From the NCBI GenBank assembly GCA_947459825.1, contig CANHFH010000002.1:17150-81149 (forward strand): DNA of 64,000 bases. Reading direction: 5' to 3'. The DNA is from Pseudomonadota bacterium (lineage in GTDB: Bacteria; Pseudomonadota; Gammaproteobacteria; Steroidobacterales; Steroidobacteraceae). This document shows, in pieces, positions 1-19,214 of the stretch. Under the pieces are notes generated by a model. That model did no database searches, had not been told where the DNA came from, and saw only the letters and a list, made by a program, of their open reading frames with translations. Numbering within the stretch: position 1 is the stretch's first letter; every line of letters begins with the position of its first letter. Both the position numbers and the translations under genes were made by a program.

Positions 1-879
<879 letters not shown>

Positions 880-904
880 GCGCGCGTCTCCTTGAGCGGT
901 GCGT

Positions 905-2521: not shown

Positions 2522-2528
2522 CTCGACC

Positions 2529-3455
2529 TCAATCCTTGAGGTGCCGCAGCACGGCCTCGAGCGTGACGCGGCTGACGCGGACGTTGGACTCGTCGGTGAC
2601 ACCGGCGATGTGCGGCGTCAGGAGCAGGTTCGGCACGCCGGCGAACAGCGCGCCCTGCGCGGCGTCGAGCGGCTCCTGCGCGAACACATCGAGCGCGGCG
2701 CCGCCGAGGTGTCCGCTGCGCAGCGCGGCGGCGAGCGCGGCCTCGTCCACCACACCGCCGCGGGCCGCGTTGAGGAGGATGCTGCCGCGGCGCATCGCGG
2801 CGATGCGCGCGGCGTCGAAGAGGCCACGGGTCTCGTCCGTCAGCGGCACATGGAGGCTCACGACATCGCTGCGCTGCACGAGCTCATCGAGGGTGACGCG
2901 CTCGGCGAGCTTCCACGCCGGATGGTCGGCGGGCAACAGCGGGTCGGCGGCGCAGATGCGCAGGCCGAGCGCCGCGGCGCGGGTGGCGGTCTCGCGTGCG
3001 ATGCCGCCCAAACCCACGAGGCCGAGCGTCTTGCCCGAGGCCTCGCGGCCGATGGTGCTCATGCGCGGCCACGCGCCGGCGATGACCTGCGGTGTCGCGG
3101 ACCACGCGCCGCGCAGCAGCACCAGCATCGCGGTGATCGCCCACTCGGCGACCGCGACATCGTTGGCGCCGGTGGCGGGGCAGACGGCGATGCCGCGCGC
3201 CTTGCAGGTCTCCACATCGATGTTGTCGAGGCCGACGCCGAGGCGTCCGACCACGCGCAGCTTGGGGGCGGCCTCGAGCAGCGCGCCGCGCACCTGCGTG
3301 CGGTTGCGGACGACGAGCGCGCGCGCATCGGCTAGCGCGGCGATGAGATCGGCCGGATGGTCGACGAGCTTGGCATCGTAGAGCACATCACGCCCGGGCA
3401 GCAGCTCGCGGATCGCGGCCTCGTCCATGAATTCGCTGATGACGATGTCGGCCAT
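2529..3455 (-). CDS. D-isomer-specific 2-hydroxyacid dehydrogenase (candidate SlcC-like sulfolactate dehydrogenase)
   Basis: 308 aa with the NAD motif GLVGLGGIARETA and catalytic-region motifs LLNAARGGVVDE and LLTPHIAG. It starts 9 nt after the upstream stop and ends 7 nt before the glpD start. Confidence 0.85.
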   Translation of the reverse strand: MADIVISEFMDEAAIRELLPGRDVLYDAKLVDHPADLIAALADARALVVRNRTQVRGALLEAAPKLRVVGRLGVGLDNIDVETCKARGIAVCPATGANDVAVAEWAITAMLVLLRGAWSATPQVIAGAWPRMSTIGREASGKTLGLVGLGGIARETATRAAALGLRICAADPLLPADHPAWKLAERVTLDELVQRSDVVSLHVPLTDETRGLFDAARIAAMRRGSILLNAARGGVVDEAALAAALRSGHLGGAALDVFAQEPLDAAQGALFAGVPNLLLTPHIAGVTDESNVRVSRVTLEAVLRHLKD

Positions 3456-3464
3456 GGCGGTCCC

Positions 3465-4490
3465 TCAGGCGATGAGCGCGCGGATCTCGGCGAGCAGCGC
3501 CGGCGGTACGGTGAGACCCTCGCTGCGCGCGCGGGCGCGGGCGGCGAGCCGGCGCGAGCCGGGCAGGCGCACCTCGGGTTCCTCGGCCATCGCGGCGGCG
3601 AGCGTCGCCATGCGCGCGCCGAACGCGCCGCCCGCGACCGGGCCGGGATCGATGGCGATGAAGAGGTGCCCCATGTCGGGCGGTGCGCCCTCGGCATCGA
3701 AGAAGGAGCTGGCCTCCCAGCCGAACGCGCCGGCGGTGAGCGCCGCGCCGAGGATCTCCACCATCAGGGCGAGCGCACCGCCTTTGGCGCCGCCGATGGG
3801 CGAGAGCGTGCCGGCGAGCGCGGCCGTGGGATCGGTGGTCGGTTGGCCGTCGCGGTCGACGGCCCAATCGGACGGGATCGCCTTGCCGGCTTTCTGCGCA
3901 GCGACGATCTTGCCGCGCGCCGCCACCGACAACGCGAGGTCGACCACGAGCGGCGCAGCGTCCGCGATCGGCGCTGCGAAGGCGAGCGGGTTGGTGCCGA
4001 GCATCGCGCGCTTGCCGCCGTAGAACGCCATCGCCTTCGGCGTGTTGCCGAAGACGAGCGCGACGAGGCCGGCTTCGGCGAGGCGCTCGGCATGCGCGCC
4101 CACCTGACCGAAGTGGTGCGAGCGATGGATGGCCGCGGCAGCGATGCCTTGCGAGCGGGCGAGCGGCACGAGCTCGGCGATCGCGAGGTCGATGGCGGGG
4201 TACGCGAAGCCTAGTCCTGCATCGACGCGCAGCACGCCGGGTGCGACGCGCGTCGACACCGGCACGGCGTCGCCTTTGACCTTGCCCGAGCGCGCCTGCG
4301 CGGCATAGGCCGGCACGCGCGCGAGGCCGTGCGCGGCCTGGCCATCGGCCTCCGCCACGACCAACGCGCGCGCCGTCGCGCGCGCGGCCGCTTCCGATGC
4401 GCCTTGGGCACGCAGCGCCGTCGCAGCGAGCACCTCGGCTTCGCCAAGCGTGAGGCGCGCCGCGGTGGGCGTCGGGCTGGATGCCGTCAC
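3465..4490 (-). CDS. Ldh_2 family malate/L-lactate/sulfolactate dehydrogenase (ComC-like)
   Basis: 341 aa with a GTG start. Typical Ldh_2 stretches are present: HGLARVPAY, HFGQ.G, GTNPLAFAAP, ARGKI, GGAKG. It is adjacent to the SuyAB-like pair. Confidence 0.8.
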   Translation of the reverse strand: MTASSPTPTAARLTLGEAEVLAATALRAQGASEAAARATARALVVAEADGQAAHGLARVPAYAAQARSGKVKGDAVPVSTRVAPGVLRVDAGLGFAYPAIDLAIAELVPLARSQGIAAAAIHRSHHFGQVGAHAERLAEAGLVALVFGNTPKAMAFYGGKRAMLGTNPLAFAAPIADAAPLVVDLALSVAARGKIVAAQKAGKAIPSDWAVDRDGQPTTDPTAALAGTLSPIGGAKGGALALMVEILGAALTAGAFGWEASSFFDAEGAPPDMGHLFIAIDPGPVAGGAFGARMATLAAAMAEEPEVRLPGSRRLAARARARSEGLTVPPALLAEIRALIA

Positions 4491-4518
4491 GGGAGGTCCT
4501 GCGCGTCGCGCGGCGCCG

Positions 4519-5694
4519 TCAGGCGCTGCGGTAGAGCTTGGTCATGACGAACTCGACATGACCCAGCGCCTCGGCGGCGGTGAGCCGGCCGTTCGCCGTC
4601 TGCTCGATGCAGTCGATGAGCGCGTCGCCCGCCTGGTCGATGGTCATCTCGCGGCGCACCACGCCCGATACGTCGACATCGACATGCTCGGGCATCAAGC
4701 GCACGGTGCGCGGATTACCGGTGACCTTGATCACCGGCATGATCGGGTTGCCGATGACATTGCCCTGGCCGGTCGGGAAGATGTGCACCACATAGCCCGC
4801 GGCGGCCTGCAGCGTGCAGCACTCGGCGGCGGCCGAGGAGGTGTCCATGAAGTAGAGGCCTTGGCCGCGCGCCGGCGCCTCGGCGGGCTCCAGCACATCG
4901 ATGAACTTCACCTTCTTGCCGATCTTCTCGAGGTTGCCGAGCGCTTTCTCTTCGATGGTGGTGAGGCCGCCGGCGATGTTGCCCTTGGTGGGCTGGCTCT
5001 CGGAGAGGTCGGAGGTCTTGTTCGCCTCGATGACATCGTCCTGATAAGCCTGCCAGGTCTTCATGAACTTCTCGCGCACCTCGGGCGTCGCGGCGCGTGC
5101 CGCGGCGAGGTGCTCGGCGCCCGTGAGCTCGGAGGTCTCGCCGAAGCAGCCGTAGAGACCGTGCGGGATCAGCTTGTCGTACATGTTGCCGACGGTGGGG
5201 CAGGAGGCGAGACCGGTGGTGGTGTCGCTCTCGCCGCACTTGGCTGCGACCCACAGCTCGCTGATGTCGCACTCGACGCGCACCTGGCCCGAGGTCTGGT
5301 GCACGAATTCTTTGGCCTTGCGCGACGCGGCGGCCACGGTGGCGATGTCGCCGTTGCCCTCGATCCAGAAGCCGGCGACCGGCTTGCCGGTCTTGGCGAT
5401 GCCGTCGACGATGCGCTGCGTCCAGCCCGGCTCGATGCCGATCACGATGCAGGCGGCGACGTTCGGGTTGGAGCCGGTGCCGATCATCGTGCGGAAGTGC
5501 AGGTCGAGGTCGGCGCCGAACTGCAGGCGCCCGTAGGCGTGCGGCAGCGCGATCGTGCCCTTGATGTTGTTGGCGACGGCCTCGCAGGCGGCGTTCGAGA
5601 TGTCGTCCACCGGCAGGATGGCGACATGGTTGCGGACGCCCACGCGGCCGTTCTCGCGGCGGAAGGCCCAGATCTTGCGGTTGTGATGGCTCAT
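4519..5694 (-). CDS. UxaA-family (altronate dehydratase C-terminal-like) large subunit; SuyB-like
   Basis: ORF 4519..5739, with the start taken at ATG 5694 ([28 protein letters not shown]...). The product is about 391 aa. It contains [21 protein letters not shown] and HIFPTGQGN, which are typical of the UxaA/GarD C-terminal domain. It starts 7 nt after the small-subunit stop. Confidence 0.8.
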
Positions 5695-5701
5695 GTGCGG
5701 C

Positions 5702-5989
5702 TTACCAACGCTTGGTCTTGAGGTTGTGGACATGGACATGCTCGCCCTTGGCGACCGGCGCGACGATGCGGCCGATGTCCTGTCCGTACTTGGTCACCGT
5801 GTCGCCGACCGCGAGGTCGACGAGCGCCACCTTGTGGCCGATCGGCACATCATGGCGGGCGGTGAGGCGGAAATCGGAATTGTCCTCGGTCACGACGCAG
5901 AGCATGTCGGTGCCGGCCTTGAGGCCTTCGACCACGACCACGCCGACGTTGTCCTTGCGATCGTGCACGAGCAGTTGGGGAACGCTCAC
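5702..5989 (-). CDS. SAF-domain small subunit of split UxaA-family enzyme; SuyA-like
   Basis: ORF 5702..6049. The start is taken at GTG 5989 ([18 protein letters not shown]...) with AGGAG about 8 nt upstream. The product is about 95 aa. The SAF-like stretch [16 protein letters not shown] is present. Confidence 0.7.
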
Positions 5990-6025
5990 GGAATAGACTC
6001 CTGGGGTTCGCTTGCGGACTGCAAG

Positions 6026-6037
6026 TCTTATATAAGA
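6026..6037. promoter_or_regulatory. perfect 12-bp palindrome TCTTATATAAGA in the divergent promoter region (candidate GntR/HutC operator and/or -10 region)
   Basis: It lies in the 58-bp gap between the SuyA-like start (5989) and the gntR start (6048). It is an AT-only core in a very GC-rich context, with flanks AGTCTTATATAAGATACT. Confidence 0.4.
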
Positions 6038-6047
6038 TACTAAACAC

Positions 6048-6806
6048 ATGAGTACCCCCGCGGCAAGCCTCCCTGAGCTGCCTGCGGGCGGGGAGCCGCT
6101 GCGCTTCCGCCCGCTCTACGGCCAGGTCTACGAGTCGCTGCTCAAGCGCATCGCCGGCGGCGAGTGGCGCGCCGGCGAGGCGCTGCCGAGCGAGCAGGCG
6201 CTCGCCGCCCAGCTCGGGGTCAGCCAGGGCACCGTGCGCAAGGCGCTCGACGCGCTCGCGCTCGACAAGATGATCGACCGGCGGCAGGGCAAGGGCACCT
6301 TCGTGGCCGAGCTCACGCAGGAGCAGGCGCTGTTCCGCTTCTTCCGCCTCACCCGCGCCGACGGCGAGCGGGCCGTGCCCTCGAGCGCCGACGAGACCCT
6401 GAAGCTGCGACCGGCGCGCGCCGTCGAGCAGCGTGCGCTCGGGCTGGCGCCGGACGAGGAGGTCATCGAGATCCTCCGCACCCGCGTGCTCGACGGTCGT
6501 CCGACCATGGTCGAGCGCGTGGTGGTGCCCGCCGCGGTGTTCCCTGGGCTCGAGCGCCTCGCGCCGCTGCCGAACGCGCTCTATGCGCTCTACCAGCGGG
6601 AATACCGGATCAACATCGCCGCGGTCGACGAGCGGCTGCGTGCCGATGCCGCGCGCCGCGAGGATGTGCGGCGGCTCGGTGTGGTGCTCGGCGCGCCCTT
6701 GCTGCAGATAGAGCGCGTCGCGCGCACCGTCGAAGGGCGGGTGGTCGAATGGCGCCTCAGCCGCTGCGACACCACGCATCTCTCCTATGCGGTGACGCTG
6801 TCGTGA
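6048..6806 (+). CDS. GntR family transcriptional regulator, HutC/UTRA subtype
   Basis: 252 aa. The N-terminal wHTH reads LPSEQALAAQLGVSQGTVRKALDAL...G.GTFV, and the C-terminal effector domain is UTRA-like. Confidence 0.85.
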   Translation: MSTPAASLPELPAGGEPLRFRPLYGQVYESLLKRIAGGEWRAGEALPSEQALAAQLGVSQGTVRKALDALALDKMIDRRQGKGTFVAELTQEQALFRFFRLTRADGERAVPSSADETLKLRPARAVEQRALGLAPDEEVIEILRTRVLDGRPTMVERVVVPAAVFPGLERLAPLPNALYALYQREYRINIAAVDERLRADAARREDVRRLGVVLGAPLLQIERVARTVEGRVVEWRLSRCDTTHLSYAVTLS

Positions 6807-7762
6807 CGGCGGCCGTCGATATCGGCGTCGCCGCCAAGACGGTGCTGTGTGTCGGTCATGCCGTGCAGGACCATGTCTACCGGCTGTCGCGACTGCCGGT
6901 CGGCGGCTCGAAGAACCGCGCCACGGGTTTCACCAGCGTCGGCGGCGGCCCGGCGGCGACGGCCGCGGTGGCCATCGCGCGCCTCGGCGGCCGCGCGCGA
7001 CTCGCGGCTCGCGTCGGCGACGATGCGGTGGCCGACGAGATCGAGCGCGAGCTCCGCGGCCACGGCGTCGATTGCGCGCAGCTGCGCCGCTTCGCGGGGC
7101 GTGCGTCCTCGCGTTCGGCGGTGGTGGTCGACGATCCCGGCGAGCGCATGATCGTCAACCACACCGACCCCGCGATGCCCGCCGACCCGGCCTGGCTCGC
7201 GCAGATCGACCTCACGGGCGTCGATGCGGTGCTCGCCGATGTGCGCTGGCCGGAGGGCGCTGCGCTGATGCTGGCCCGCGCCCGCGCTGCGGCGCTGCCC
7301 GCGGTGCTCGACGCCGATGTGCCGCTGCCGCCCGGCTCGCCGTTGCCGCGGGCGGCGACGCATGTCGCGTTCTCGCTGCCGGGCCTGCGCGACCATCTCG
7401 GGCTCGCGGCGGACACGCCGCTCGATGCGGGCGCCTGTGCGGCGGCTCTGCAGCGCATCGCGCGCGAGACCGGCGCATGGTGCGCGGTGACCATGGGCGC
7501 GGAGGGCGTGCTGCACGGCCGCGCCGGCGCGATCGTGCATTCGCCCGCGTTCCGCGTGACGGCGGTCGACACGCTCGGCGCCGGCGATGTCTGGCACGGC
7601 GCGTTCGCGCTGGCGCTGGCGGAAGGCCTCGACGAGACCGCCGCGGTGCGCGCGGCCTCGGCCGCCGCCGCGATAAAGGTGACGCGCCCGGGTGGGCGTG
7701 CGGGCGCGCCGACGCGCGCGGAACGCGATGCGCTGCTGTCGTCGACGGCAGGCGGCGCCTGA
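6803..7762 (+). CDS. PfkB-family sugar(-phosphate) kinase (YihV-like by context)
   Basis: The frame is that of ORF 6164..7762. The start is taken at GTG 6803, which overlaps the gntR stop (GTGA). Motifs present: GGGPAATAAVAIARLG, ADVRW, DTLGAGDVWHGAF (PfkB signature) and TRPGGRAG. Confidence 0.85.
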   Translation: MTAAVDIGVAAKTVLCVGHAVQDHVYRLSRLPVGGSKNRATGFTSVGGGPAATAAVAIARLGGRARLAARVGDDAVADEIERELRGHGVDCAQLRRFAGRASSRSAVVVDDPGERMIVNHTDPAMPADPAWLAQIDLTGVDAVLADVRWPEGAALMLARARAAALPAVLDADVPLPPGSPLPRAATHVAFSLPGLRDHLGLAADTPLDAGACAAALQRIARETGAWCAVTMGAEGVLHGRAGAIVHSPAFRVTAVDTLGAGDVWHGAFALALAEGLDETAAVRAASAAAAIKVTRPGGRAGAPTRAERDALLSSTAGGA

Positions 7763-7775
7763 AGGAGGACGAGGC

Positions 7776-8822
7776 TTGGACCTTTCAGCTGGGAAATACC
7801 GGGGTATGCGTCGCATGGCGGACGCCGCCGGGCGCTTCAAGATGACGGCGGTCGACCAAAGGCCGCCGATCAAGAACCCGATCCGCGAGAAGCGCGGCAC
7901 GGCGGAGGCGCCGTGGGAGGATGTCGCGGGGTTCAAGGAGATGCTCATCCGCGAGCTGCAGGCGGAGTCGTCGGCGATGCTGCTCGACCCGCACTACGCG
8001 TATCCGCGCGGCGTCACGATGCTCGACGCCTCGCGCGGCATGATCCTCACGCTCGAGGACTCGATCTTCAAAGAAACCCCGGGCGGTCGCCTGTCGTCCG
8101 AGATCGACGATTGGTCGGTGGAGAAGATCAAGCGCGCGGGCGGCGATGCCGTGAAGGTGCTGGCCTGGTACCGGCCGGACGCCGACCCCGCGGTCTGCCG
8201 TGCCCAGCAGGATTTCACGCAGCGCATCGGCGAGGCCTGCAAGCGCTACGACATCCCGTTCGTGTTCGAGCTGCTGGTCTATCCGCTCGCTTCGGATGCG
8301 GCGCAGACCCGCGACTACATCGAGATGCAGGGCAAGCATCCGGAGTTCGTCGTCGAGAGCGTGCGCACCTTCGCCGACCCGCGTTTCGGCGTCGACCTCT
8401 TCAAGCTCGAGAGCCCGGTGCCCGCGGCGCAGGTGCCCGGCGTCGGCGAGCCCGGCTGGGAGGACGCGCAGCGCTGGTTCGACGCCGTCGGTGCGGCCGC
8501 CGGTCGGCCGTGGGTGATGCTGTCGGCGGGCGCCGGCATGACCGAGTTCCGTCGCGTGCTCACGCACGCCTACCGCGCAGGGGCTTCGGGCTATCTCGCG
8601 GGCCGCGCCATCTGGGCGCGGGCGTTCACGCAGTTCCCCGATTGGGATGCGATCCGTGACGGTCTGCGGGGCGAGGCGCGGGAATACATGCGCGGCCTGA
8701 ACGCGCTCACGGATGCCTCGGCGACACCCTGGCACACCCACGCCTGCTACGGTGCGCAAGGTGCGCGCGTGACGCCGGCGGATGCGACCTTCCGCCATGT
8801 TTACCCCGGGTTCGGGTCTTGA
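7776..8822 (+). CDS. class I aldolase of the LacD/YihT (tagatose-bisphosphate aldolase-like) family
   Basis: The frame is that of ORF 7692..8822. The start is taken at TTG 7776, 6 nt after AGGAGGA (7763-7769). Family motifs present: FKMTAVDQR, DLFKLE (candidate Schiff-base Lys), PWVMLSAG, GASGYLAGRAIWA. Confidence 0.8.
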   Translation: MDLSAGKYRGMRRMADAAGRFKMTAVDQRPPIKNPIREKRGTAEAPWEDVAGFKEMLIRELQAESSAMLLDPHYAYPRGVTMLDASRGMILTLEDSIFKETPGGRLSSEIDDWSVEKIKRAGGDAVKVLAWYRPDADPAVCRAQQDFTQRIGEACKRYDIPFVFELLVYPLASDAAQTRDYIEMQGKHPEFVVESVRTFADPRFGVDLFKLESPVPAAQVPGVGEPGWEDAQRWFDAVGAAAGRPWVMLSAGAGMTEFRRVLTHAYRAGASGYLAGRAIWARAFTQFPDWDAIRDGLRGEAREYMRGLNALTDASATPWHTHACYGAQGARVTPADATFRHVYPGFGS

Positions 8823-8835
8823 GGAGGACGATGAC

Positions 8836-10239
8836 ATGCTGACCTATGGCGTGGCGGTGCTCGCCCGACCGACCTTCGATGTGCCCTTCGCGGAAGCGAC
8901 CAAGGAGCGTGCGTTCGCGGCGCTCGAGGCGGCCGGCATCCGCACGGTGGGGCCGCGCGGTCTGCTGTTCGACCGTGCTGCCGCCGAGCAGGCGGTCGCG
9001 GAGATCGCCGCCGCCGGACCCATCGACCTGCTGCTGATCCTGCAGGTCACCTTCACGGACGCCACCATGACGGTGAAGCTCGCGCGCGAGGCCAAGGTGC
9101 CGCTCGCGGTCTGGGCGCTGCCCGAGCCGCGCATCGGCGGTCGTCTGCGCTTGAACGCCTACTGCGGACTCAACCTCGCGGCGCATGCGCTCGGTCGCGC
9201 GGCTGTGCCGCACGGCTCGCTGTACGCGGATCCCGACGCGCCCGGCATCGGCGAGAGCCTGCGTGCGCTCGCGCGGGTGCACGCGATCCCGGCGTCGGTG
9301 GCGCAGCCGCCGGCCGCGGCGGTCGCCGCGGCGGACGCCGCCGCCGCCCGCGTGCTCGGCACGCTGGCCGATTCAAAGATAACGGTCGTGGGCCGTCATC
9401 CGGACGGCTTCGACACCTGCGAATACGATCCGGCGCTGCTCGCTCGGCTCACCGGTATGAGCGTCGAGCAGGTGGAGCTGCCCGATCTCTTCGCGCGGGC
9501 GCGCGCCACCGACCCGGCACGGGTCGCCGCGGTGCGCGAGCGCGTCGAGGCGCAGGTGGCGGGCGTGGCCGAGGTCGATGCCGAGCAGCTCGACCGCTCG
9601 TTCCGCGTGTTCTGCGCGTTGGAAGATGTGCAGCGCGATACGGGCGCGAAGGGCCTCGCGGTGCGCTGCTGGCCCGAGATGTTCACCGAATACGGCTGCG
9701 CGGCCTGCGGGCCGATGGCCATGATGAACCAGAAGAAGGTGCCCTCGGCCTGCGAGGCCGATGTCAACGGCTCGATGACGCAGCTCATCCTCCAGGAACT
9801 CGCGGGCGAGCCCGCATGGATGGCCGATCTCGTCGACATCACCGCCGCCGACGACACCGCCGTGCTGTGGCACTGCGGGCTCGCGCCGCTCTCCATGTGC
9901 GACCCCGAGTTCAAGCCCGAGGCCACCATCCACACCAACCGCCGCATGCCGCTGCTGCACCAGTTCCCGATCAAGCCGGGCCGCATCACGCTGGCGCGCA
10001 TCTCGCGCTCGCGCAACGCGCTCAAGCTCGTGATCGCGGGCGCGGAGGTGTTGCGTGCGCCGATGGCCTTCACCGGCTGCTCGGGCACGGTGCGCTTCGA
10101 CCGCCCGGCGGGCGAGGTGAGCCAGCGCATCCTCGACGAGGCGTTGGAGCACCACTTCGCGCTCGCCTACGGCGACCACCGCGAGGCGCTGCGCGCGTTG
10201 GCGCAGCGCTGGCAGATCCCGGTGCTCGAGCTCGCGTGA
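8836..10239 (+). CDS. L-fucose/L-arabinose isomerase-family protein (uncharacterised subgroup)
   Basis: ATG 8836 follows GAGGAGGA (8821-8828). The product is 467 aa. FucI/AraA-like stretches are present: SACEADVNGSMTQ, VLWHCG, EHHFALAYGDH. Confidence 0.7.
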   Translation: MLTYGVAVLARPTFDVPFAEATKERAFAALEAAGIRTVGPRGLLFDRAAAEQAVAEIAAAGPIDLLLILQVTFTDATMTVKLAREAKVPLAVWALPEPRIGGRLRLNAYCGLNLAAHALGRAAVPHGSLYADPDAPGIGESLRALARVHAIPASVAQPPAAAVAAADAAAARVLGTLADSKITVVGRHPDGFDTCEYDPALLARLTGMSVEQVELPDLFARARATDPARVAAVRERVEAQVAGVAEVDAEQLDRSFRVFCALEDVQRDTGAKGLAVRCWPEMFTEYGCAACGPMAMMNQKKVPSACEADVNGSMTQLILQELAGEPAWMADLVDITAADDTAVLWHCGLAPLSMCDPEFKPEATIHTNRRMPLLHQFPIKPGRITLARISRSRNALKLVIAGAEVLRAPMAFTGCSGTVRFDRPAGEVSQRILDEALEHHFALAYGDHREALRALAQRWQIPVLELA

Positions 10240-12311
10240 TGGATCCCGGCGTCCCGAACTGGGGCCGCATCCCGGCGCTCGCCGTCACGGGCGCTCCGGC
10301 GCTCGTCGCCGTGGGCGCCGGCCACGAGCTGCGCTTGCCGACTTCGGCGGGCGAGATCGTGCTGACGCTGCACGATCACGGGCTGCGGCTGCGTGTCGGA
10401 CCGCCGGTGCGCGACTACGGCATCCTGGTCGCGGCGCCCGTGCCGTTGCAGCTGCAGTTGGAGGCGATCGACGGCGGCTCGCGCGTCACCGCGCGCACCG
10501 CGTCCGGTGGCGCGCTCGAACTGCGCGTCGGCCATGCGCCGTTCCACTTCGAGCTGCTGCTGGATGGTCGCCGGGTGCAGGGCTCGTCGACCGACGGCCA
10601 TTTCGTGCGCCGTTTCCGGCTGCCGCCGCTGGCGCGCCACGACGGACGCTGGCTCTTCACCGTCGATCTCGGCGCCGACACGCCGGTGTACGGTCTCGGC
10701 GAGAAGTCCGGCAAGCTCGACAAGCGCGGGCAGTGGCTGCGCTCCTACAACCACGATGCGCTGGGTCTCAACGCCGAGCGCAGCTACAAGAACGCCCCGT
10801 TCGCCTGGAGTCCGGAGGGTTGGGGCGTGTTCGTGCACGGCCCCGATCCGGTGACCCACGGCGTCGGCTTCGGCCCGTGGTCGCAGCGCGCGTATCTGCT
10901 GGCGGTGGAGGGCGAGGGGCTCGATGTCTTCGTGCTGACCGGTGCCGACGGCGCGGCGCAGCTGCGCCAGTACACCGACCTCACGGGCCGTGCCCCGGAG
11001 CCGCCGCCTTGGAGCCTCGGCACCATCCTCTCGAAGGCGTACTACAAGGACGCCGACGAGATCCTGTCGGTGGCGCGCGAGGTGCGCGCACGCGGGCTGC
11101 CCTGTGAGGTCATCACCTTCGATGGCCGCGCCTGGCAGGACACCGACACGCGCTTCGCGTTCGAGTGGTGCCCGAAGCGCTACCCCGACCCGAAGCCGGT
11201 CATCGACGAGCTCAAGTCCATGGGCTTCCGCATCTGCGTGTGGGAGTACCCGCTGGTGTCGGTGCGGCATCCGCTGTTCGCCGAGATGGCCGCCAAGGGT
11301 TGGCTGCTGCGCGACGCGCGCACCGGCGAGCCGTACCGCTACGCCTGGGACCCGGAACCCTTCGGCGCGGTGCTCACGCAGCTGCCGGAGTCCGGCGTGG
11401 TGGATTTCACCCACCCCGAGGCCTACGCGTTCTGGCGCGACAAGCACCGCGACCTCTTCGAGCTCGGCGTCGACATGATCAAGGCCGATTTCGGCGAGCA
11501 GATCGAGCCGCACATGCTCGCGCGCGACGGCTCGCAGGGCGACGCCCTGCACAACATCTACGCGCTGCTCTACAACCGTTGCGTGTACGAGGCGGCGCAG
11601 CGGTTCGGCCGCGACGGCGCCTTCCTCTTCAGCCGTGCCGGGTGGTCCGGCTCCCAAAGATATCCCTCGCAGTGGGGCGGCGATCCGCAGGCCGACTGGG
11701 GCGGGCTCGCCGGCAACCTGCGCAGCGGCATCTCGTGGGGGCTCACCGGCGCGCCGTACTACGCGACCGATGTGGGCGGCTTCTACGGCGATACCCGCGA
11801 CCCCGTGCTCTATGTCCGCTGGCTGCAGGCGGCGGTGTTCTCCGCGCATCTGCGGCTGCACGGCATCGGTCCGCGCGAGCCGTGGTCCTACGGACCGGAG
11901 GCCGAGCGCATCGCGCGCGCGGCGCTCGAGTTGCGGCAGCGGCTGCTGCCTTATCTGTGGCAGGCGGTGCGCGGGTCGGCGGCCACGGGCCTGCCGGTGC
12001 AGCGACCGATGGTCATCGCCTGCCCCGAGGACCGCGCGTCCTGGGCCTTCGAGGACCAGTTCTTCCTGGGCGGCGACCTGCTGGTCGCACCCTGTCTGCG
12101 CCCGGACGGCGAAGTGACGGTCTATCTGCCGGCGGGGGAGTGGGTGCGGTTCCCGGACGGCCGCGCGGTCGAGGGCGGCCGCGTGCATCGGCTGCGGTTG
12201 GCGCTCGACGAGATCGCGATGTTCGCGCGCCGCGGCGCGCGCATCCCGTTGGGCGGCCCCGCCGGACCGCTGCGCGGCGCCATCGTCGCCACGGAGCACT
12301 GGCAGGCATGA
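10239..12311 (+). CDS. glycoside hydrolase family 31 alpha-glycosidase (YicI-like architecture; candidate sulfoquinovosidase by context only)
   Basis: ATG 10239 overlaps the isomerase stop (TGATG). The product is 690 aa. The GH31 nucleophile motif is GVDMIKADFGE, and a second acid region reads WGGDPQADW...ATDVGGFYG. Confidence 0.85.
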   Translation: MDPGVPNWGRIPALAVTGAPALVAVGAGHELRLPTSAGEIVLTLHDHGLRLRVGPPVRDYGILVAAPVPLQLQLEAIDGGSRVTARTASGGALELRVGHAPFHFELLLDGRRVQGSSTDGHFVRRFRLPPLARHDGRWLFTVDLGADTPVYGLGEKSGKLDKRGQWLRSYNHDALGLNAERSYKNAPFAWSPEGWGVFVHGPDPVTHGVGFGPWSQRAYLLAVEGEGLDVFVLTGADGAAQLRQYTDLTGRAPEPPPWSLGTILSKAYYKDADEILSVAREVRARGLPCEVITFDGRAWQDTDTRFAFEWCPKRYPDPKPVIDELKSMGFRICVWEYPLVSVRHPLFAEMAAKGWLLRDARTGEPYRYAWDPEPFGAVLTQLPESGVVDFTHPEAYAFWRDKHRDLFELGVDMIKADFGEQIEPHMLARDGSQGDALHNIYALLYNRCVYEAAQRFGRDGAFLFSRAGWSGSQRYPSQWGGDPQADWGGLAGNLRSGISWGLTGAPYYATDVGGFYGDTRDPVLYVRWLQAAVFSAHLRLHGIGPREPWSYGPEAERIARAALELRQRLLPYLWQAVRGSAATGLPVQRPMVIACPEDRASWAFEDQFFLGGDLLVAPCLRPDGEVTVYLPAGEWVRFPDGRAVEGGRVHRLRLALDEIAMFARRGARIPLGGPAGPLRGAIVATEHWQA

Positions 12312-12423
12312 ACACTCCGTCGCAGACCCGCCGCGGTGTCTTGTCTGATGGGAACATCTTTGTTAGCGTGCCGGCAGTCTTATGCCGGCCACGCTCGTTG
12401 CGTCGGTACAACACAGGGGAAAC

Positions 12424-14739
12424 ATGATGTCGACGCGAAACAAGTTGGTTGCGGGTGCGGTCGCAGGGATCTGCGCGATGCTCGCGGCGCCGGGGGCCTA
12501 CGCCCAGGACGGCGTCGAGCGTCTCGACGAGATCGTCATCACCGCGCAGAAGCGCGAACAGAAACTGCAGGATGTACCCATCGCGGTCAGCGTGGTCAGC
12601 GGCGCGCTCGCCGAGTCCACCGGCAGCTACAACATCGAGTCGCTGCGCGCACTCGTGCCCTCGCTCAACATCCGCAAGACCAACACCTCGCTGAACCAGT
12701 CGGTGTTCCTGCGCGGCGTCGGCACCATCAACTTCGCGATCGCCGCGCAGCCGAGCGTCGCCACGGTGCTCGACGGCGTGGTGCTGTCGTCGGCCGGTGA
12801 GGCTTTCGGCGATCTCTACGACGTCGAGCGCGTCGAGGTGCTGCGCGGTCCGCAGGGTACGCTGTTCGGCAAGAACGCCTCGGCGGGCGTGGTGAACATC
12901 GTCACCAAGCGTCCGGGCGACGAGTTCGGCGGCTATGTCGACTTCGGCTACTACGAGGACGACGAGGTCCGCGTGAAGGCGGCGGTCGACCTGCCGATCT
13001 CCGAGAACGTCCGTTCGCGCACCACGGTCACCTGGGGCGACTTCAACGGGTACATCAACAACGTCTCCGCCACCGCCGGCGGCGGCAAGATGAACGGCTA
13101 CGACCGCAAGGGCGTACGCAGTTCCTGGGACTTCGACGCCGAGACCAGCAAGTGGCAGCTGAACCTCGATTACCGGCAGTCGGACGACAACTGCTGCGTC
13201 GAAGTGATCGGCACGGCGCCCACCGGCGCCAACGGTCCTGCGCTGCAGTCGCTCATGACCGGCGTCACCTTCCTCGGCGACAAGACGCGCACCGTGCGTC
13301 AGGACCTGCAGATGCGCTCCTTCGAGCGCGCCTGGGGCTTCTCGCTGCAGGGCGATATCGACTGGGACGACAAGACCCTCACCTCGATCACCGCTTATCG
13401 CACATGGGACGCCACCGAGATCCGCGAAGGCGACTGGTTGGACACGGCCGCCGCTTATGTCGGCAACACCTTCGCGCAGCTGCACGATTTCGGTCCGCAG
13501 GAGACCAAGACGCTGTCGCAGGAGCTGCGCATCGCCTCGGCGGGCGGTGAGACGATCGACTATGTCGCCGGTCTCTACTTCTCGAAGACCGATGCCGAGC
13601 GTTTCTTCCGGCGTGACACCATCGTCTGCCGTTCGACCACCCTCCCGGTGAACGCGACGGGCCTCGCGCCCTGCCGCGCCGGCGCCTCGGTGATCGACAC
13701 CACGCCGAGCGCCAACGCCACCTTCGGCGCGAAGTTCCAGAACATGGCCGCCTTCGTCGACGGCACCTGGAACCTGTCCGACCGCTTCCGCGTCATCGGC
13801 GGTCTGCGTGCCACGCGCGACGAGCTGAGCTACTACCACACCTACAACTTCTCGCCCTCGGCGGGTCCCGGCATCCGCACGGCTCCGGCCGGTTCGGGTC
13901 CGACGGCGACGCTCGGCGGCAGCGACACCTCGGGCAACGTCTCGGGGCGTCTGGGTGCGCAGCTCGACTTCACCGACGATGTGATGCTCTACGCGACCTA
14001 CTCGCGCGGCTACAAGGGCCCGGCGTACAACGTGTTCTTCAACATGGGCGTCAACAACACGCCGGTGATCGACGCCGAGATCGTGGACTCCTACGAGGCG
14101 GGCTTGAAGTCGTCGGCCCTCGATGGCCGGATGCTCTTCAACCTGGCGGCGTTCCGCGCCGACTACTCGGACTTCCAGGCCAACAACTTCACCTTCCTGA
14201 ACGGTGCGCTCATCACGACGCTCACCAACGCGGGCGAGGTGTCGTCGCAGGGCGTGGAGTTCGACTTCCAGTTCAAGCCCTCGTCCTACTTCGCGATCGG
14301 CGGCGGCTTGGCCTACACCGATGCGCAGGTGGACAAGTTCTTCACCCCGCCGGGCTCCACGCCGACGGTGCGTGACGGCACCCAGCTGCCGCTCGCCCCG
14401 GAGCTGAAGGGCTCGCTGGTGGTCGAAGGCGCGTTCCCGATCGGCTCGTGGACGCTGGCGCCGAACGTCGTCGTGTCGTACACGGAGGACCAGTTCTCGG
14501 ACCTCAACGAGCCGGCGGCGCTCAAGATCCCGAGCTACACCACGGTCGATGTCGCGCTGGCGCTCACCGATGCGGACGACCGCATCCGCCTCAGCCTGAT
14601 CGGTCGCAACGTCACGGACGAGGCCTACACCGTCCTCAAGACGGCGGGTGGCCCGGGCGGCGTGCCGCGTCTGCAGATCCCGCGTGACGCCGACCGCTAC
14701 TTCGGCATCCAGGCGCGCTTCCGCTTCGGCGGCAACTGA
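12424..14739 (+). CDS. TonB-dependent outer-membrane receptor
   Basis: The signal peptide is MMSTRNKLVAGAVAGICAMLAAPGAYA. The plug region reads DEIVITAQKREQKLQDVPIAVSVV...VEVLRGPQGTLFGKNASAGVVNIVTK, followed by a long beta-barrel. Confidence 0.9.
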   Translation: MMSTRNKLVAGAVAGICAMLAAPGAYAQDGVERLDEIVITAQKREQKLQDVPIAVSVVSGALAESTGSYNIESLRALVPSLNIRKTNTSLNQSVFLRGVGTINFAIAAQPSVATVLDGVVLSSAGEAFGDLYDVERVEVLRGPQGTLFGKNASAGVVNIVTKRPGDEFGGYVDFGYYEDDEVRVKAAVDLPISENVRSRTTVTWGDFNGYINNVSATAGGGKMNGYDRKGVRSSWDFDAETSKWQLNLDYRQSDDNCCVEVIGTAPTGANGPALQSLMTGVTFLGDKTRTVRQDLQMRSFERAWGFSLQGDIDWDDKTLTSITAYRTWDATEIREGDWLDTAAAYVGNTFAQLHDFGPQETKTLSQELRIASAGGETIDYVAGLYFSKTDAERFFRRDTIVCRSTTLPVNATGLAPCRAGASVIDTTPSANATFGAKFQNMAAFVDGTWNLSDRFRVIGGLRATRDELSYYHTYNFSPSAGPGIRTAPAGSGPTATLGGSDTSGNVSGRLGAQLDFTDDVMLYATYSRGYKGPAYNVFFNMGVNNTPVIDAEIVDSYEAGLKSSALDGRMLFNLAAFRADYSDFQANNFTFLNGALITTLTNAGEVSSQGVEFDFQFKPSSYFAIGGGLAYTDAQVDKFFTPPGSTPTVRDGTQLPLAPELKGSLVVEGAFPIGSWTLAPNVVVSYTEDQFSDLNEPAALKIPSYTTVDVALALTDADDRIRLSLIGRNVTDEAYTVLKTAGGPGGVPRLQIPRDADRYFGIQARFRFGGN

Positions 14740-14764
14740 TCCGGCGCAGGGCGGTCCGAGCGTC

Positions 14765-15331
14765 GTGAAGCGCGCGCTCGCGGCCGCCCTGAGGCTGCTC
14801 GGTGCAGTGAACGCCCCCATCGCGAGATGGGGGCTTTCTTTTTCTGCGGCGCTGCTCGCGCTGATGCTGGCGGTGGCGCTGGCGCAGATCGCCTCCCGTG
14901 GCCTCTTCAACCACACCCTCGACTGGGCCGAGGAGATCGCGCGTTGGGCGCTGGTGTGGGGCGCGTTGCTCGCAGCGCCGATGGGCTACCGTGCTGCGGG
15001 ACATGTCGCCATCACGATGCTCGTCGAGGCTTTGCCGCCGCGGCTGCTGTACGCGCTCGCCATCGCGATCAACCTGCTCATCGGCTGGATCTGCCTGATG
15101 TTCCTCATCGAGGGCATCGCTTTCGTGGGCCGCGGCTCGACGCTGGTGGCGACGGCGCTGCCCTTGAGCATGGGCTGGGTGTACGCGATCGTGCCGTTGT
15201 CGCTGGCGGCGCTGCTGTCGGTCTCGGTCGAAGCGGTGCTGCGCCTGCTGCATGACCTGGTCTCGGGCGAGGCGGGCCGCGAGCCGCTGGTCGGGGTGGT
15301 GCCGTTGCTCGAGCGCGAGCCGCAGGACTGA
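14765..15331 (+). CDS. TRAP transporter small permease (DctQ-like)
   Basis: The start is taken at GTG 14765, after the receptor stop. The product is about 188 aa with four hydrophobic helices and lies immediately upstream of the DctM-like gene. Confidence 0.75.
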   Translation: MKRALAAALRLLGAVNAPIARWGLSFSAALLALMLAVALAQIASRGLFNHTLDWAEEIARWALVWGALLAAPMGYRAAGHVAITMLVEALPPRLLYALAIAINLLIGWICLMFLIEGIAFVGRGSTLVATALPLSMGWVYAIVPLSLAALLSVSVEAVLRLLHDLVSGEAGREPLVGVVPLLEREPQD

Positions 15332-15336
15332 CGGTC

Positions 15337-16623
15337 ATGTCCATCGCGTTCTTCTGGATCTTCATCCTGCTGCTGGCGCTCGGCGCACCGGTGGTGTTCG
15401 CGCTGCTGCTCGGGCCGGGCCTGAGCCTCGTCCTCGACGGTGAGACGCGCTACTTCGCGGCGCTGCTCGCGCGTTTCTACAACGGCATCGACAGCTTCCC
15501 GCTGCTGGCCGTGCCGTTCTTCATCCTCGCCGGCGAGCTCATGAACTCCGGCGGCATCACAGCCGCCATCGTGCGCTTCGCGCAGACCCTGGTCGGGCAT
15601 GTGCGCGGCGGCCTCGCGCAGGTCAATGTGCTCTCGTCCATGATGTTCGCCGGCATCTCCGGCTCCGCCGTCGCCGACGCCTCGGCCATCGGCAAGATGC
15701 TGATCCCGGAGATGGAGAAGCAGGGCTACTCGCGGCCCTTCGCGTCGGCGGTCACCGCGGCGGCGGCGGTGATCGGCCCGATCATCCCGCCCTCCGGCAT
15801 CATGGTGCTGTACGGCTTCGTGATGAACGTCTCCATCGGCGCGCTGTTCGCGGCCGGTGTCGTGCCGGGCATCCTCATCGGTCTCGGTCTCATGGGCCTC
15901 ATCCGCTTGCTCGCGGGCCGGTACAAGCTGCCGCCGGCCACGCCGCGCGCGACCTGGGCCGAGCGTGGCCAGGCGTTCCGTGGCGCGTGGCTCGCGTTGC
16001 TGCTGCCCGTGATCCTGCTCGGCGGCATGCTGAGCGGCGTCTTCACGGCCACCGAGGCCGCGGCCGTCGCGGTGGCCTACGCGCTCTTCGTCACCGTCTT
16101 CGTGCTGCGCAACACGGGCTGGCGGGACCTCAAGCGCATCTTCCGCGCCACCGCGCTGCAGTCGGGCGTGATCCTGTTGCTGGTGGGCGCAGCGGTGACC
16201 CTCGGTTGGCTGGTCACCGTTTCCGGACTCGCCACCCGGATCGCCGAGACCATCCTCGCCATCACCGATAACCCGCTGCTGCTGCTGTTCCTGGTCAACA
16301 TCCTGCTGCTGATCGTCGGCATGTTCCTCGACGCCGGCCCCGCGATCCTCATCCTGGGTCCGGTGTTGTCGCCGGTGTTCACGGCGCTCGGCGTCGACCC
16401 GGTGCATTTCGCGCTGGTGATGTGCGTGAACCTCACCATCGGCCTCGCCACGCCGCCGATGGGGCTCGTCCTGTTCGTCACCGCCTCGGTCGCGCGCGAG
16501 CGGCTGGAGAACATCGTGCGCGCCATCCTGCCGTTCCTCGCGGTCGAGATCGCGGTGCTGTTCCTCATCACCTTCTTCCCGGCGCTGGTGCTGACGCTGC
16601 CGCGTTGGCTGGGGCTGCTCTGA
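15337..16623 (+). CDS. TRAP transporter large permease (DctM-like)
   Basis: 428 aa, polytopic, with the typical DctM layout (FPLLAVPFFILAGELMN..GI). Confidence 0.9.
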   Translation: MSIAFFWIFILLLALGAPVVFALLLGPGLSLVLDGETRYFAALLARFYNGIDSFPLLAVPFFILAGELMNSGGITAAIVRFAQTLVGHVRGGLAQVNVLSSMMFAGISGSAVADASAIGKMLIPEMEKQGYSRPFASAVTAAAAVIGPIIPPSGIMVLYGFVMNVSIGALFAAGVVPGILIGLGLMGLIRLLAGRYKLPPATPRATWAERGQAFRGAWLALLLPVILLGGMLSGVFTATEAAAVAVAYALFVTVFVLRNTGWRDLKRIFRATALQSGVILLLVGAAVTLGWLVTVSGLATRIAETILAITDNPLLLLFLVNILLLIVGMFLDAGPAILILGPVLSPVFTALGVDPVHFALVMCVNLTIGLATPPMGLVLFVTASVARERLENIVRAILPFLAVEIAVLFLITFFPALVLTLPRWLGLL

Positions 16624-16636
16624 TGGCGGTGTCCCC

Positions 16637-17689: not shown

Positions 17690-17703
17690 AGGAGACGACC
17701 GTC

Positions 17704-18150: not shown

Positions 18151-18230
18151 GCACGGCCGACGGCGGCGCTCCACGCGGCCGCCCGGGGGGGGCGCGATGG
18201 TCTCCGGCCATATGCGCTATATTGATTCCA

Positions 18231-18787: not shown

Positions 18788-18823
18788 GCGCCGTCTTCCG
18801 CCGTCCGGCGTCCGACCGATCGA

Positions 18824-19194: not shown

Positions 19195-19214
19195 TGCGCG
19201 GCGCGGCGGAACGG

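Follow-up and report, generated by a model that had tools for sequence, protein, structure and literature searches.

A probable sulfoquinovose catabolic locus of Steroidobacteraceae combining a SqgH-type GH31 glycosidase, a mosaic sulfo-EMP pathway and sulfolactate desulfonation

Introduction

Which sugar is used by a bacterium whose gene cluster joins a kinase and an aldolase of sulfoglycolytic appearance to an isomerase of another fold and to a glycosidase resembling an alpha-xylosidase? The question is raised by a stretch of 64,000 nucleotides (the window; positions 17,150 to 81,149 of contig CANHFH010000002.1, assembly GCA_947459825.1) from a gammaproteobacterium of the family Steroidobacteraceae, in which a GntR-type regulator, a PfkB-family kinase, a class I aldolase, an isomerase and a glycoside hydrolase of family 31 (GH31) are encoded in a row. 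An earlier note on this DNA had left two possibilities, a variant of sulfoglycolysis with a non-orthologous isomerase or a pathway for a different 6-substituted or rare hexoside. On the basis of homology and gene context, the locus very probably serves the catabolism of sulfoquinovose (SQ) delivered as sulfoquinovosyl-glycerol (SQGro) by a mosaic ('hybrid') pathway of the sulfo-Embden-Meyerhof-Parnas type (sulfo-EMP) with a SqgH-type sulfoquinovosidase, extended by desulfonation of sulfolactate. The first possibility is supported by the sulfonate-binding triad of the kinase, the match of the isomerase to the SftI model and to no other in NCBIfam, the SqgH residues of the glycosidase and the flanking genes for SuyAB, SlcC, ComC, GlpK, GlpD, a TonB-dependent receptor (TBDR) and a tripartite ATP-independent periplasmic (TRAP) transporter; the second is disfavoured by the SqgH match.

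Results

The GH31 glycosidase

The GH31 protein is probably a SqgH-type sulfoquinovosidase. AmSqgH of Alteromonas macleodii, from a GH31 clade next to subfamily 3 (that of YicI), hydrolyses p-nitrophenyl sulfoquinovoside (PNPSQ) and SQGro and is inactive on the p-nitrophenyl xyloside and glucoside (PNPXyl and PNPGlc); it lacks the Q/E-RWY motif of YihQ, and the residues predicted to hold SQGro are R302, T377, K412 and F513 (PMC12780224). The window protein is 61% identical to the GH31 encoded in an Aestuariibacter cluster (L080) for the SQ dioxygenase (sulfo-SDO) pathway and 62% identical to P0286, which exceeds the 50% identity cut-off of the SqgH clade (PMC12780224), and it is 32-34% identical to YicI and, over the catalytic domain, 28-30% identical to YihQ. 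Its residues R305, T380, K415 and F515 correspond to the four positions of AmSqgH, as do R304/T379/K414/F515 in Aestuariibacter and R301/T376/K411/F512 in the 689-aa homologues. The published 75/35/101 spacing is kept in the latter two, and the last interval is 100 in the window protein owing to a one-residue deletion after K415. In YicI the place of R305 is taken by a Trp, and the loop of 8 residues bearing T380 is missing. We collected, at one genome per species, 80 loci with a GH31 at least 60% identical to the window protein; the R/T/K/F set and the catalytic residues D417 and D482 are invariant in 79-80 of the 80 relatives, and in all 80 for the two Asp residues, which align with the catalytic pair of YicI and YihQ. 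Another Arg specific to the clade, R297 in FDGRAW, does not vary either.

The earlier note had called this enzyme YicI-like, in agreement with scores of 332 bits for YicI and 162 bits for YihQ, and the Arg it had seen at a YicI Trp position (TRFAFEW) proves to be R305, the predicted sulfonate-binding Arg of SqgH. It had left undecided whether the Arg/Trp/Tyr triad of YihQ is present. R301, W304 and Y508 of YihQ have no counterparts in the window protein, because SqgH uses different residues. The full Q/E-RWY motif (Q288, R301, W304 and Y508 in YihQ) was likewise not found; the motif region is unalignable, BLAST and MAFFT disagree, BLAST sets YihQ R301 opposite R297, and neither alignment is relied on here. 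The protein has the three Pfam GH31 domains and is predicted to be cytoplasmic, with no signal peptide. It reaches 205 bits with the PRK10426 alpha-glucosidase model (cut-off 553), which we take to be the YihQ-type model. The CAZy hidden Markov models would formally put the SqgH clade in subfamily 3 (PMC12780224).

An ordinary neutral-sugar locus, with an alpha-xylosidase or alpha-glucosidase and a tagatose- or fuculose-type isomerase, kinase and aldolase, is what the public annotations suggest ('alpha-xylosidase' for the GH31, 'L-fucose isomerase-like' for the isomerase), and it would agree with YicI as the best PDB match of the GH31 and with an aldolase that passes the NCBIfam cut-off for 'tagatose 1,6-diphosphate aldolase'. 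We regard it as highly improbable. The GH31 scores 423 bits against the alpha-xylosidase equivalog cut-off of 606, and it has the Arg in place of the YicI Trp and the additional T380 loop; E. coli YicI (GH31_3) has no activity on PNPSQ, just as AmSqgH has none on PNPXyl or PNPGlc (PMC12780224). The kinase carries a sulfonate-specific K/N/R triad, not a phosphate motif (RRS or TR). The neighbouring genes encode SuyAB, sulfolactate dehydrogenases and a TRAP transporter, and TRAP systems carry organic anions.

Among the named GH31 relatives in two homologue searches, nearly all carry the annotation 'alpha-xylosidase' or 'alpha-D-xyloside xylohydrolase', a few being named generically as GH31 or TIM-barrel proteins; relatives of the isomerase are labelled 'L-fucose isomerase-like' or hypothetical. 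This is likely to be a systematic mis-annotation of SQ genes.

SqgH has been reported only with sulfo-SDO in marine Gammaproteobacteria (PMC12780224). The window contains no TauD-family gene (SqoD), and its GH31 is coupled to an isomerase, a kinase and an aldolase instead of sulfo-SDO genes; the co-location described in the SqgH paper is an association and not a property of the enzyme.

The kinase, isomerase and aldolase

The kinase probably acts as a sulfofructose (SF) kinase. It is 43% identical (216 bits) to the SF kinase YihV of E. coli, whose crystal structures display a sulfonate-binding triad, K27/N109/R138, in place of the phosphate motif of PfkB and tagatose-6-phosphate kinases (PMC8006165). 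K37/N119/R148 of the window kinase are the equivalents of this triad and D23/S105 those of YihV D13/S95; these residues and the GAGD catalytic motif are invariant across 44-45 related loci. A PfkB fold (Pfam PfkB), the catalytic Asp of GXGD and a sulfonate triad rather than a TR or RRS phosphate motif, the features by which a YihV is recognised, are thus all present.

The isomerase had been assigned the FucI/AraA fold in the earlier note, and three comparisons agree. Its match to Pfam Fucose_iso_C is weak (28.8 bits, sub-threshold); its sole NCBIfam match is the SQ isomerase SftI (NF048012; 260 bits, E 3e-77), short of the equivalog cut-off; and an AlphaFold2 model (predicted local distance difference test score 73) retrieved with Foldseek first L-arabinose isomerases (E 3e-14) and then L-fucose and D-arabinose isomerases (E 1e-8), at a template modelling score of about 0.45, the top matches all being L-arabinose or L-fucose isomerases. 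No sequence match was found in the PDB. Residues E307, D309, H346, H439 and H440 are invariant among the relatives aligned and may correspond to the Mn ligands of AraA and FucI. SftI/SqvD is a FucI-family SQ isomerase that replaces YihS in hybrid sulfo-EMP1/2 clusters (PMC9594981, PMC10665668), and the window protein is probably an SQ isomerase of a divergent SftI/SqvD type.

An SftI-like isomerase (37-39% identity) is also encoded on plasmid pZZM402 of Zymomonas mobilis ZM4 (128-11361), together with a class II fructose-bisphosphate-type aldolase, an aldose epimerase, a Gfo/Idh/MocA oxidoreductase, two MFS transporters, a TBDR and a GabD-like dehydrogenase. This cluster resembles a sulfo-EMP2-like hybrid; a kinase and a glycosidase are absent from the stretch viewed.

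The view that kinase and aldolase closely mirror YihV and YihT holds for the former only. The aldolase, a DeoC/LacD class I aldolase by Pfam, is 28% identical to YihT (67 bits) and far closer to PDB entry 8TNF (318 bits), its nearest relative of solved structure, and to the LacD tagatose-bisphosphate aldolases (about 140 bits); the motifs that had been quoted for it are common to the DeoC/LacD family at large. It passes NCBIfam NF009498, the PRK12858 'tagatose 1,6-diphosphate aldolase' subfamily, with 341 bits against a cut-off of 184, and by sequence it is not a member of the YihT group. The Schiff-base Lys (K210) and an anion-binding Arg (R277) are conserved (Lys193 and Arg253 in YihT); LacD has both too. 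The sequence of 8TNF is about 68% identical by tblastn to rhizobial 'tagatose-1,6-diphosphate aldolases', and literature searches on 8TNF and on 'DUF2090 aldolase' returned only unrelated papers or nothing relevant.

Aldolases of the same subfamily (49-54% identity) adjoin kinases with the YihV K/N/R triad on megaplasmids of Rhizobium, Neorhizobium and Variovorax (L084, L085 and L086). The annotated Rhizobium and Neorhizobium clusters of this group add a LacI regulator, an ABC transporter, a zinc-dependent alcohol dehydrogenase, a short-chain dehydrogenase/reductase, a formylglycine-generating enzyme and sulfatases; an enolase-like protein is annotated in the Rhizobium cluster only, and the TSUP exporter annotated in Rhizobium is 'hypothetical' in Neorhizobium. 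Two loci from metagenome-assembled genomes (MAGs; L028 and L044) pass directly from kinase to isomerase with no space for an aldolase gene, the remainder of the cluster being intact.

It is at the aldolase that another 6-sulfo hexoside comes into question, for example an alpha-glycoside of sulfofucose (6-deoxy-6-sulfo-D-galactose) degraded via sulfotagatose and sulfotagatose-1-phosphate to dihydroxyacetone phosphate (DHAP) plus sulfolactaldehyde (SLA), which would then be passed on to SuyAB. Such a route would suit the LacD/PRK12858 'tagatose 1,6-diphosphate aldolase' subfamily and the merely distant relationship of the isomerase to characterised SftI, and in rhizobia aldolases about 50% identical to the present one adjoin K/N/R-triad kinases, in clusters that also encode a TSUP exporter and sulfatases and that resemble cluster 2 of Paracoccus wurundjeri, to which a hypothetical 'sulfofucolytic EMP' route has been ascribed (PMC12421959). 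The P. wurundjeri kinase/aldolase pair was not induced on sulfofucose, however, and no sulfotagatose route was detected (PMC12421959). Sugar identity is set by the glycosidase; this shares 61-62% identity with the SqgH orthologues encoded in SQ-specific sulfo-SDO clusters, and its predicted binding residues are all invariant. SQ is also vastly more abundant in nature than sulfofucose. The likeness to LacD does not imply a galacto-configured substrate, because LacD-type class I aldolases discriminate poorly at C3/C4. We hold the sulfofucose route to be improbable and retain SQ as the likelier substrate.

The sulfolactate, glycerol and transport genes

The genes transcribed divergently from gntR would take the sulfonate product further. 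SuyB shows 68% identity to its Cupriavidus pinatubonensis counterpart, encoded in an hpsN-hpsO-hpsP-suyAB cluster, and 73-78% to homologues from Paracoccus and Sinorhizobium, and the division into a SAF small subunit and a UxaA-type large subunit is the architecture of annotated suyAB pairs. Homologues of the two adjacent dehydrogenases (2-Hacid_dh, 62% identity; Ldh_2, 55% identity) adjoin suyAB in Sinorhizobium mexicanum, which has been reported to possess SlcC, ComC and SuyAB (PMC12421959). The best NCBIfam match of the Ldh_2 protein is L-sulfolactate dehydrogenase (185 bits, under the cut-off of 500). By analogy, we infer that the pair forms a two-enzyme sulfolactate racemase. With the NCBIfam sulfolactate dehydrogenase match in view, we assume that the 2-Hacid_dh protein would be SlcC and the Ldh_2 protein ComC.

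Beyond these dehydrogenases, glpD adjoins the module in 31 loci, and the part of GlpK that lies in the window (2..879) has an NCBIfam match of 448 bits over 292 aa; a 495-aa FGGY gene is called at this position on the public contig. A TBDR gene stands 3' of the GH31 gene in 64 of the 80 loci, including sulfo-SDO loci at 39-41% identity, and its counterpart in A. macleodii showed a 107-fold higher abundance on SQ (PMC12780224). The TRAP genes are similarly widespread (dctM kept in 47 loci, dctP in 46), and the SQ gene cluster of Roseobacter denitrificans encodes a TRAP system with a binding protein, proposed as an SQ/SQGro importer (PMC12780224).

No YihR, YihU or GabD homologue was found in the window or in most related loci, GabD occurring only in an uncultured Sphingomonadales locus (L059), Deinococcus and Zymomonas. 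An aldehyde dehydrogenase was found neither among ten larger open reading frames (ORFs) sampled in the rest of the window nor by tblastn of two GabD-type proteins against the whole of it.

Conservation of the locus and its variants

A sulfo-EMP-hybrid context surrounds the GH31 gene in 55 of the 80 loci; all three genes (kinase, aldolase and isomerase) are present in 39, and most of the others are cut by contig ends. Nine loci have a sulfo-SDO context with a TauD-type dioxygenase, an aldo-keto reductase, GntR, GH31, an SSF transporter and a TBDR. The remainder comprises two loci with the GH31 gene directly after a YihS-family (PF07221) isomerase gene (cultured Nitrospirillum), two with the SuyAB module only (Azospirillaceae), one without informative neighbours and 11 in which the upstream sequence is too short to classify. 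The full divergent order, glpD-slcC-comC-suyB-suyA on one side and gntR-kinase-aldolase-isomerase-GH31-TBDR-dctQMP on the other, recurs in MAGs of Steroidobacteraceae and Nevskiaceae, many of them apparently lake-derived by their isolate names, and also in Caulobacterales, Parvularculaceae and Sphingomonadales.

Several variants accompany this common form. In L059 a GabD/SlaB-type aldehyde dehydrogenase gene (5185-6612) is inserted between gntR and the kinase gene, the cluster being otherwise syntenic with suyAB kept, and there is a weak YihR-like (mutarotase) match at 15597-16445; the window and all other SuyAB-type loci have neither a GabD nor a YihR-like gene. Plasmid pDEIPE01 of Deinococcus peraridilitoris DSM 19664 (L087, 89944-101607) carries GabD and GntR genes and, in the divergent direction, genes for an ABC transporter, an SftI-like isomerase, a PfkB kinase, a LacD-like aldolase, a GH31 and an AEC exporter. 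The Deinococcus GH31 (45-47% identity) keeps the SqgH residue set, and the kinase triad is a variant one (R/R/R). In Nitrospirillum amazonense BR 11880 and Nitrospirillum sp. BR 11164 (L062:8266-12049 and L064) a 522-aa YihS-family (PF07221) protein is encoded directly 5' of an SqgH-like GH31; the neighbouring genes are unrelated (AcrB efflux, sulfotransferase), and the other steps of any SQ pathway must be encoded at another site in these genomes.

The upper pathway might also handle SQ separately from SuyAB, with SLA reduced or oxidised and exported as 2,3-dihydroxypropane-1-sulfonate (DHPS) or sulfolactate through enzymes encoded elsewhere, and with suyAB-slcC-comC serving imported sulfolactate and placed nearby through a shared sulfonate-responsive regulator. 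A locus without an SLA dehydrogenase would fit this separation, as would the GntR-suyAB units that stand alone in Paracoccus versutus and S. mexicanum. We think it unlikely to hold, because both operons are conserved strictly together in some 38 loci of Gamma- and Alphaproteobacteria, sharing one 58-bp control region and a single operator; L059 places a GabD-type enzyme inside the upper operon and yet retains suyAB, the Azospirillaceae loci keep sqgH directly beside suyAB, and 'extended' sulfo-transaldolase (sulfo-TAL) clusters with SuyAB have already been proposed (PMC9594981). A joint role of the two operons in SQ breakdown remains the reading that we favour.

Regulation of the locus

Between suyA and gntR, a spacer of 58 bp holds the perfect palindrome TCTTATATAAGA, which has no second match in the window even when 2 mismatches are allowed (0.03 expected by chance). 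It is kept in 33 of 35 suyA-gntR spacers across Gamma- and Alphaproteobacteria, and marine sulfo-SDO loci have it at 2-4 copies per locus, upstream of sqgH, of the TBDR gene and of the TauD dioxygenase operon. Individual occurrences were noted in L061, L065, L073, L080 and L082. GntR homologues with 43-49% identity adjoin suyAB in Paracoccus and Sinorhizobium and sqgH in sulfo-SDO loci. The palindrome is probably the operator of the GntR/HutC regulator, and two chemically different SQ pathways appear to have one module in common, made up of this regulator with its operator, SqgH and the TBDR.

Layout of the locus

The features are listed in Table 1. The gene junctions described in the earlier note are all present: the gntR stop and the GTG start of the kinase gene overlap as GTGA at 6803-6806, AGGAGGA lies 6 nt 5' of the TTG at 7776 that starts the aldolase gene, GAGGAGGA precedes the ATG of the isomerase gene at 8836, and the isomerase stop and the GH31 start overlap as TGATG at 10237-10241. 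So are its motifs, which can be read in the translations of the kinase (GGGPAATAAVA, ADVRW and TRPGGRAG), the aldolase (AVDQR, DLFKLE, PWVMLSAG and GASGYLAGRAIWA), the 467-aa isomerase (ACEADVNG, WHCG and HHFALAYGDH) and the GH31 protein (IKADFGE, FDGRAWQDTDTRFAFEW and GGFY). The window has a G+C content of about 70%, and an analysis by frame of G+C at third codon positions supports these frames as coding. An actinobacterial origin, which such a G+C content might suggest, is excluded by the TonB receptor and by the relatives in Steroidobacteraceae. Public gene calls on an 81-kb metagenome contig (ENA ERZ27280167), of which the window is an identical part, match for the kinase, isomerase and GH31 genes, and start the aldolase at an ATG at 7806 rather than at the TTG at 7776. 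The TTG is the better start because homology to 8TNF begins at residue 4 of the corresponding ORF and a strong Shine-Dalgarno sequence precedes it; the deposited aldolase protein is probably 10 residues short.

Table 1. Features of the probable SQ locus, with positions in the window.
Feature	Position	Strand	Basis
glpK, glycerol kinase, N-terminal part	2..879	-	Pfam FGGY_N, 245 bits; gene runs past the window start
glpD, aerobic glycerol-3-phosphate dehydrogenase	905..2521	-	NCBIfam equivalog NF008899, 732 bits against cut-off 360
2-Hydroxyacid dehydrogenase, candidate SlcC-type sulfolactate dehydrogenase	2529..3455	-	Pfam 2-Hacid_dh_C and 2-Hacid_dh
Ldh_2-family dehydrogenase, candidate ComC-type (R)-sulfolactate dehydrogenase	3465..4490	-	Pfam Ldh_2, 320 bits
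suyB, (R)-sulfolactate sulfo-lyase large subunit	4519..5694	-	Pfam GD_AH_second and GD_AH_C, no SAF domain
suyA, sulfolactate sulfo-lyase small subunit	5702..5989	-	95 aa, Pfam SAF domain
Palindrome TCTTATATAAGA, probable GntR/HutC operator (predicted binding site)	6026..6037	.	In the 58-bp divergent promoter region
gntR, HutC-subfamily regulator	6048..6806	+	Pfam GntR helix-turn-helix and UTRA effector domain
PfkB-family kinase, probable SF kinase (YihV-type)	6803..7762	+	Best PDB match 7AG6
Class I (Schiff-base) aldolase, LacD/PRK12858 subfamily, probable sulfofructose-1-phosphate aldolase	7776..8822	+	NCBIfam NF009498; specificity suggested by context only
FucI/AraA-fold aldose-ketose isomerase, probable SQ isomerase (divergent SftI/SqvD type)	8836..10239	+	NCBIfam SftI
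GH31 of the SqgH clade, probable cytoplasmic sulfoquinovosidase on SQGro	10239..12311	+	Identity to sulfo-SDO GH31s
TonB-dependent outer-membrane receptor, probable SQ or SQGro uptake	12424..14739	+	Pfam Plug and TonB_dep_Rec_b-barrel
dctQ, TRAP small membrane subunit	14765..15331	+	Pfam DctQ
dctM, TRAP large membrane subunit	15337..16623	+	Pfam DctM (public contig)
dctP, TRAP substrate-binding protein, probable inner-membrane uptake of an anionic sulfosugar	16637..17689	+	Pfam DctP and NCBIfam TRAP_S1

Directly 3' of the TRAP genes (17704-22534) lie genes for a low-molecular-weight phosphotyrosine phosphatase, an extracytoplasmic function (ECF) sigma factor and a 932-aa Ser/Thr protein kinase with TPR repeats, which have no evident sulfosugar link. 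The rest of the window, as judged from the ten larger ORFs sampled, encodes housekeeping functions. A scan of positions 1-19000 for promoters and terminators gave nothing above shuffled expectation.

Discussion

Proposed pathway

Gene order and coupling, the protein families, the kinase triad, the SqgH residues, the kinship of SuyB and the conservation of the locus can be read from the sequences. Which substrates are used, which way transport runs, what the two dehydrogenases do and how the genes are regulated we infer from homology and position in the cluster, and we propose the following route. The TBDR would carry SQGro or SQ over the outer membrane and the TRAP system DctPQM would carry it over the inner membrane. 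In the cytoplasm, the SqgH-type GH31 would release SQ and glycerol from SQGro, with R305 and with T380 on the clade-specific loop binding the substrate in place of the YihQ triad, and GlpK and GlpD would convert the glycerol to DHAP. The SftI/SqvD-like isomerase, presumed to be metal-dependent, would turn SQ into SF, the YihV-type kinase with its K37/N119/R148 triad would phosphorylate SF to sulfofructose-1-phosphate (SFP), and the LacD-type class I aldolase, forming its Schiff base on K210, would cleave SFP to DHAP and (S)-SLA. Oxidation of SLA to (S)-sulfolactate is assigned to an enzyme encoded outside the window. The 2-Hacid_dh/Ldh_2 pair (SlcC/ComC-like) may then convert (S)-sulfolactate via sulfopyruvate to (R)-sulfolactate, which SuyAB would split into pyruvate and sulfite. 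The HutC-type GntR, whose gene is coupled in translation to that of the kinase, probably keeps the two divergent operons repressed via TCTTATATAAGA until a sulfonated effector binds its UTRA domain.

Several points weigh against this proposal. No SLA dehydrogenase or reductase and no mutarotase (YihR/SqvB) is encoded in the 64-kb window or in the approximately 39 complete loci, which leaves a gap between the upper pathway and SuyAB; nor is a sulfite exporter evident in the 64 kb. At 260 bits against an equivalog cut-off of 700, the isomerase is a distant relative of SftI and not an equivalog. The aldolase resembles tagatose-bisphosphate aldolases more closely than it does YihT, and its conserved residues discriminate neither sulfonate from phosphate nor the configuration at C4. 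The binding residues of AmSqgH are AlphaFold and docking predictions with mutagenesis support, not taken from a crystal structure (PMC12780224), and our comparison with AmSqgH was made through orthologues and conserved spacing rather than the A. macleodii sequence itself.

A more far-reaching version of the proposal is conceivable, and we advance it only tentatively, as more likely wrong than right. The locus would encode a self-contained, single-organism route from SQGro to pyruvate, DHAP and sulfite; the LacD-type enzyme would be a third, hitherto overlooked kind of SFP aldolase; SLA would be oxidised without a GabD/SlaB-type enzyme, maybe by a dehydrogenase of the locus itself; and the shared GntR operator would mark a sulfosugar regulon module (regulator, SqgH and TBDR) plugged into two or more SQ pathways of different chemistry.

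Significance

SQ is produced at about 10 Pg per year (PMC13436972). According to a 2026 review, the freshwater degraders of SQ and their pathways are largely unresolved, and sulfoglycolysis normally needs a second organism for sulfur release. If the assignment holds, the abundant Steroidobacteraceae of lakes and soils, along with several alphaproteobacterial lineages, would be candidate primary SQ degraders that mineralise the sulfonate themselves, and the SqgH clade would not be confined to marine sulfo-SDO bacteria. Surveys that use YihQ and YihT as markers, or that trust the labels 'alpha-xylosidase' and 'tagatose-bisphosphate aldolase', would overlook these organisms. The locus would also be a defined place to seek the missing SLA-oxidising enzyme and would offer a testable regulator-operator pair for sulfosugar sensing, with D. 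peraridilitoris DSM 19664 as a cultured carrier ready for use as a test organism.

Comparison with known systems

Two elements of the locus are already known, the FucI-family isomerase in place of YihS (PMC9594981, PMC10665668, PMC13372026) and the SqgH-type GH31 (PMC12780224). New with respect to the literature searched are the combination of SqgH with sulfo-EMP rather than sulfo-SDO, and beyond marine Gammaproteobacteria; a LacD-type enzyme in the place of the SFP aldolase; desulfonation within the locus without a recognisable SLA dehydrogenase; the hosts; and the shared operator. Our searches found no paper that joins SqgH to sulfo-EMP, that deals with SQ in Steroidobacteraceae or that names this aldolase subfamily as an SFP aldolase, which is weak evidence as most subscription papers lay outside the search.

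The hybrid sulfo-EMP1/2 clusters (Liu et al. 2021; Sharma et al. 2023, PMC10665668; a Vibrio example in PMC13372026), whose published hallmark is the non-orthologous mixing of isozymes, share with the window the proposed chemistry, a FucI-family isomerase (PF02952) in place of YihS, a PfkB kinase (PF00294) and a class I PF01791 aldolase. The window differs from them in its SqgH-type rather than YihQ (GH31_13) glycosidase, in its LacD/PRK12858-type aldolase and in having no mutarotase (YihR/SqvB), SLA reductase or dehydrogenase, or CsqR, and it adds SlcC/ComC/SuyAB, GlpK/GlpD, the TBDR and the TRAP system. The yih sulfo-EMP pathway of E. coli (YihQ, YihR, YihS, YihV, YihT and YihU) follows the same sequence from an SQ glycoside through SQ, SF and SFP to DHAP and SLA, with a homologous kinase of identical triad. 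The window isomerase is of another fold, however, its GH31 of another clade and its aldolase of another subfamily, and YihR, YihU, YihO/P and CsqR are absent; the sulfonate product, excreted as DHPS in E. coli, is probably mineralised in the window organism.

With the sulfo-SDO cluster of A. macleodii ATCC 27126 (PMC12780224) the window has in common a cytoplasmic SqgH-clade GH31 without the Q/E-RWY motif and an adjacent TBDR, together with a GntR/HutC regulator, the TCTTATATAAGA operator and a GlpD-like gene nearby. The chemistry is different, as sulfo-SDO employs the TauD-type SQ dioxygenase SqoD and an aldo-keto reductase, whereas the window encodes C-C cleavage by isomerase, kinase and aldolase together with SuyAB; the inner-membrane transporter is an SSF symporter in the former and a TRAP system in the latter. 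The hosts also differ, being marine Gammaproteobacteria for the SqgH of sulfo-SDO and freshwater or soil Steroidobacteraceae, Alphaproteobacteria and Deinococcus here.

The tandem sulfofucolytic-sulfolactate sulfolyase pathway of P. wurundjeri (PMC12421959) and the 'extended' sulfo-TAL clusters (PMC9594981) resemble the window in uniting sulfosugar cleavage, SlcC/ComC racemisation and SuyAB in one organism. P. wurundjeri likewise lacks a GabD/SlaB-type SLA dehydrogenase, and its 'missing step in SLA oxidation' has been acknowledged as open (PMC12421959). Its upper pathway is of the Entner-Doudoroff type and starts from free sulfofucose imported by an ABC transporter, whereas that of the window is of the EMP type, placed after a sulfoquinovosidase and served by a TBDR and a TRAP system.

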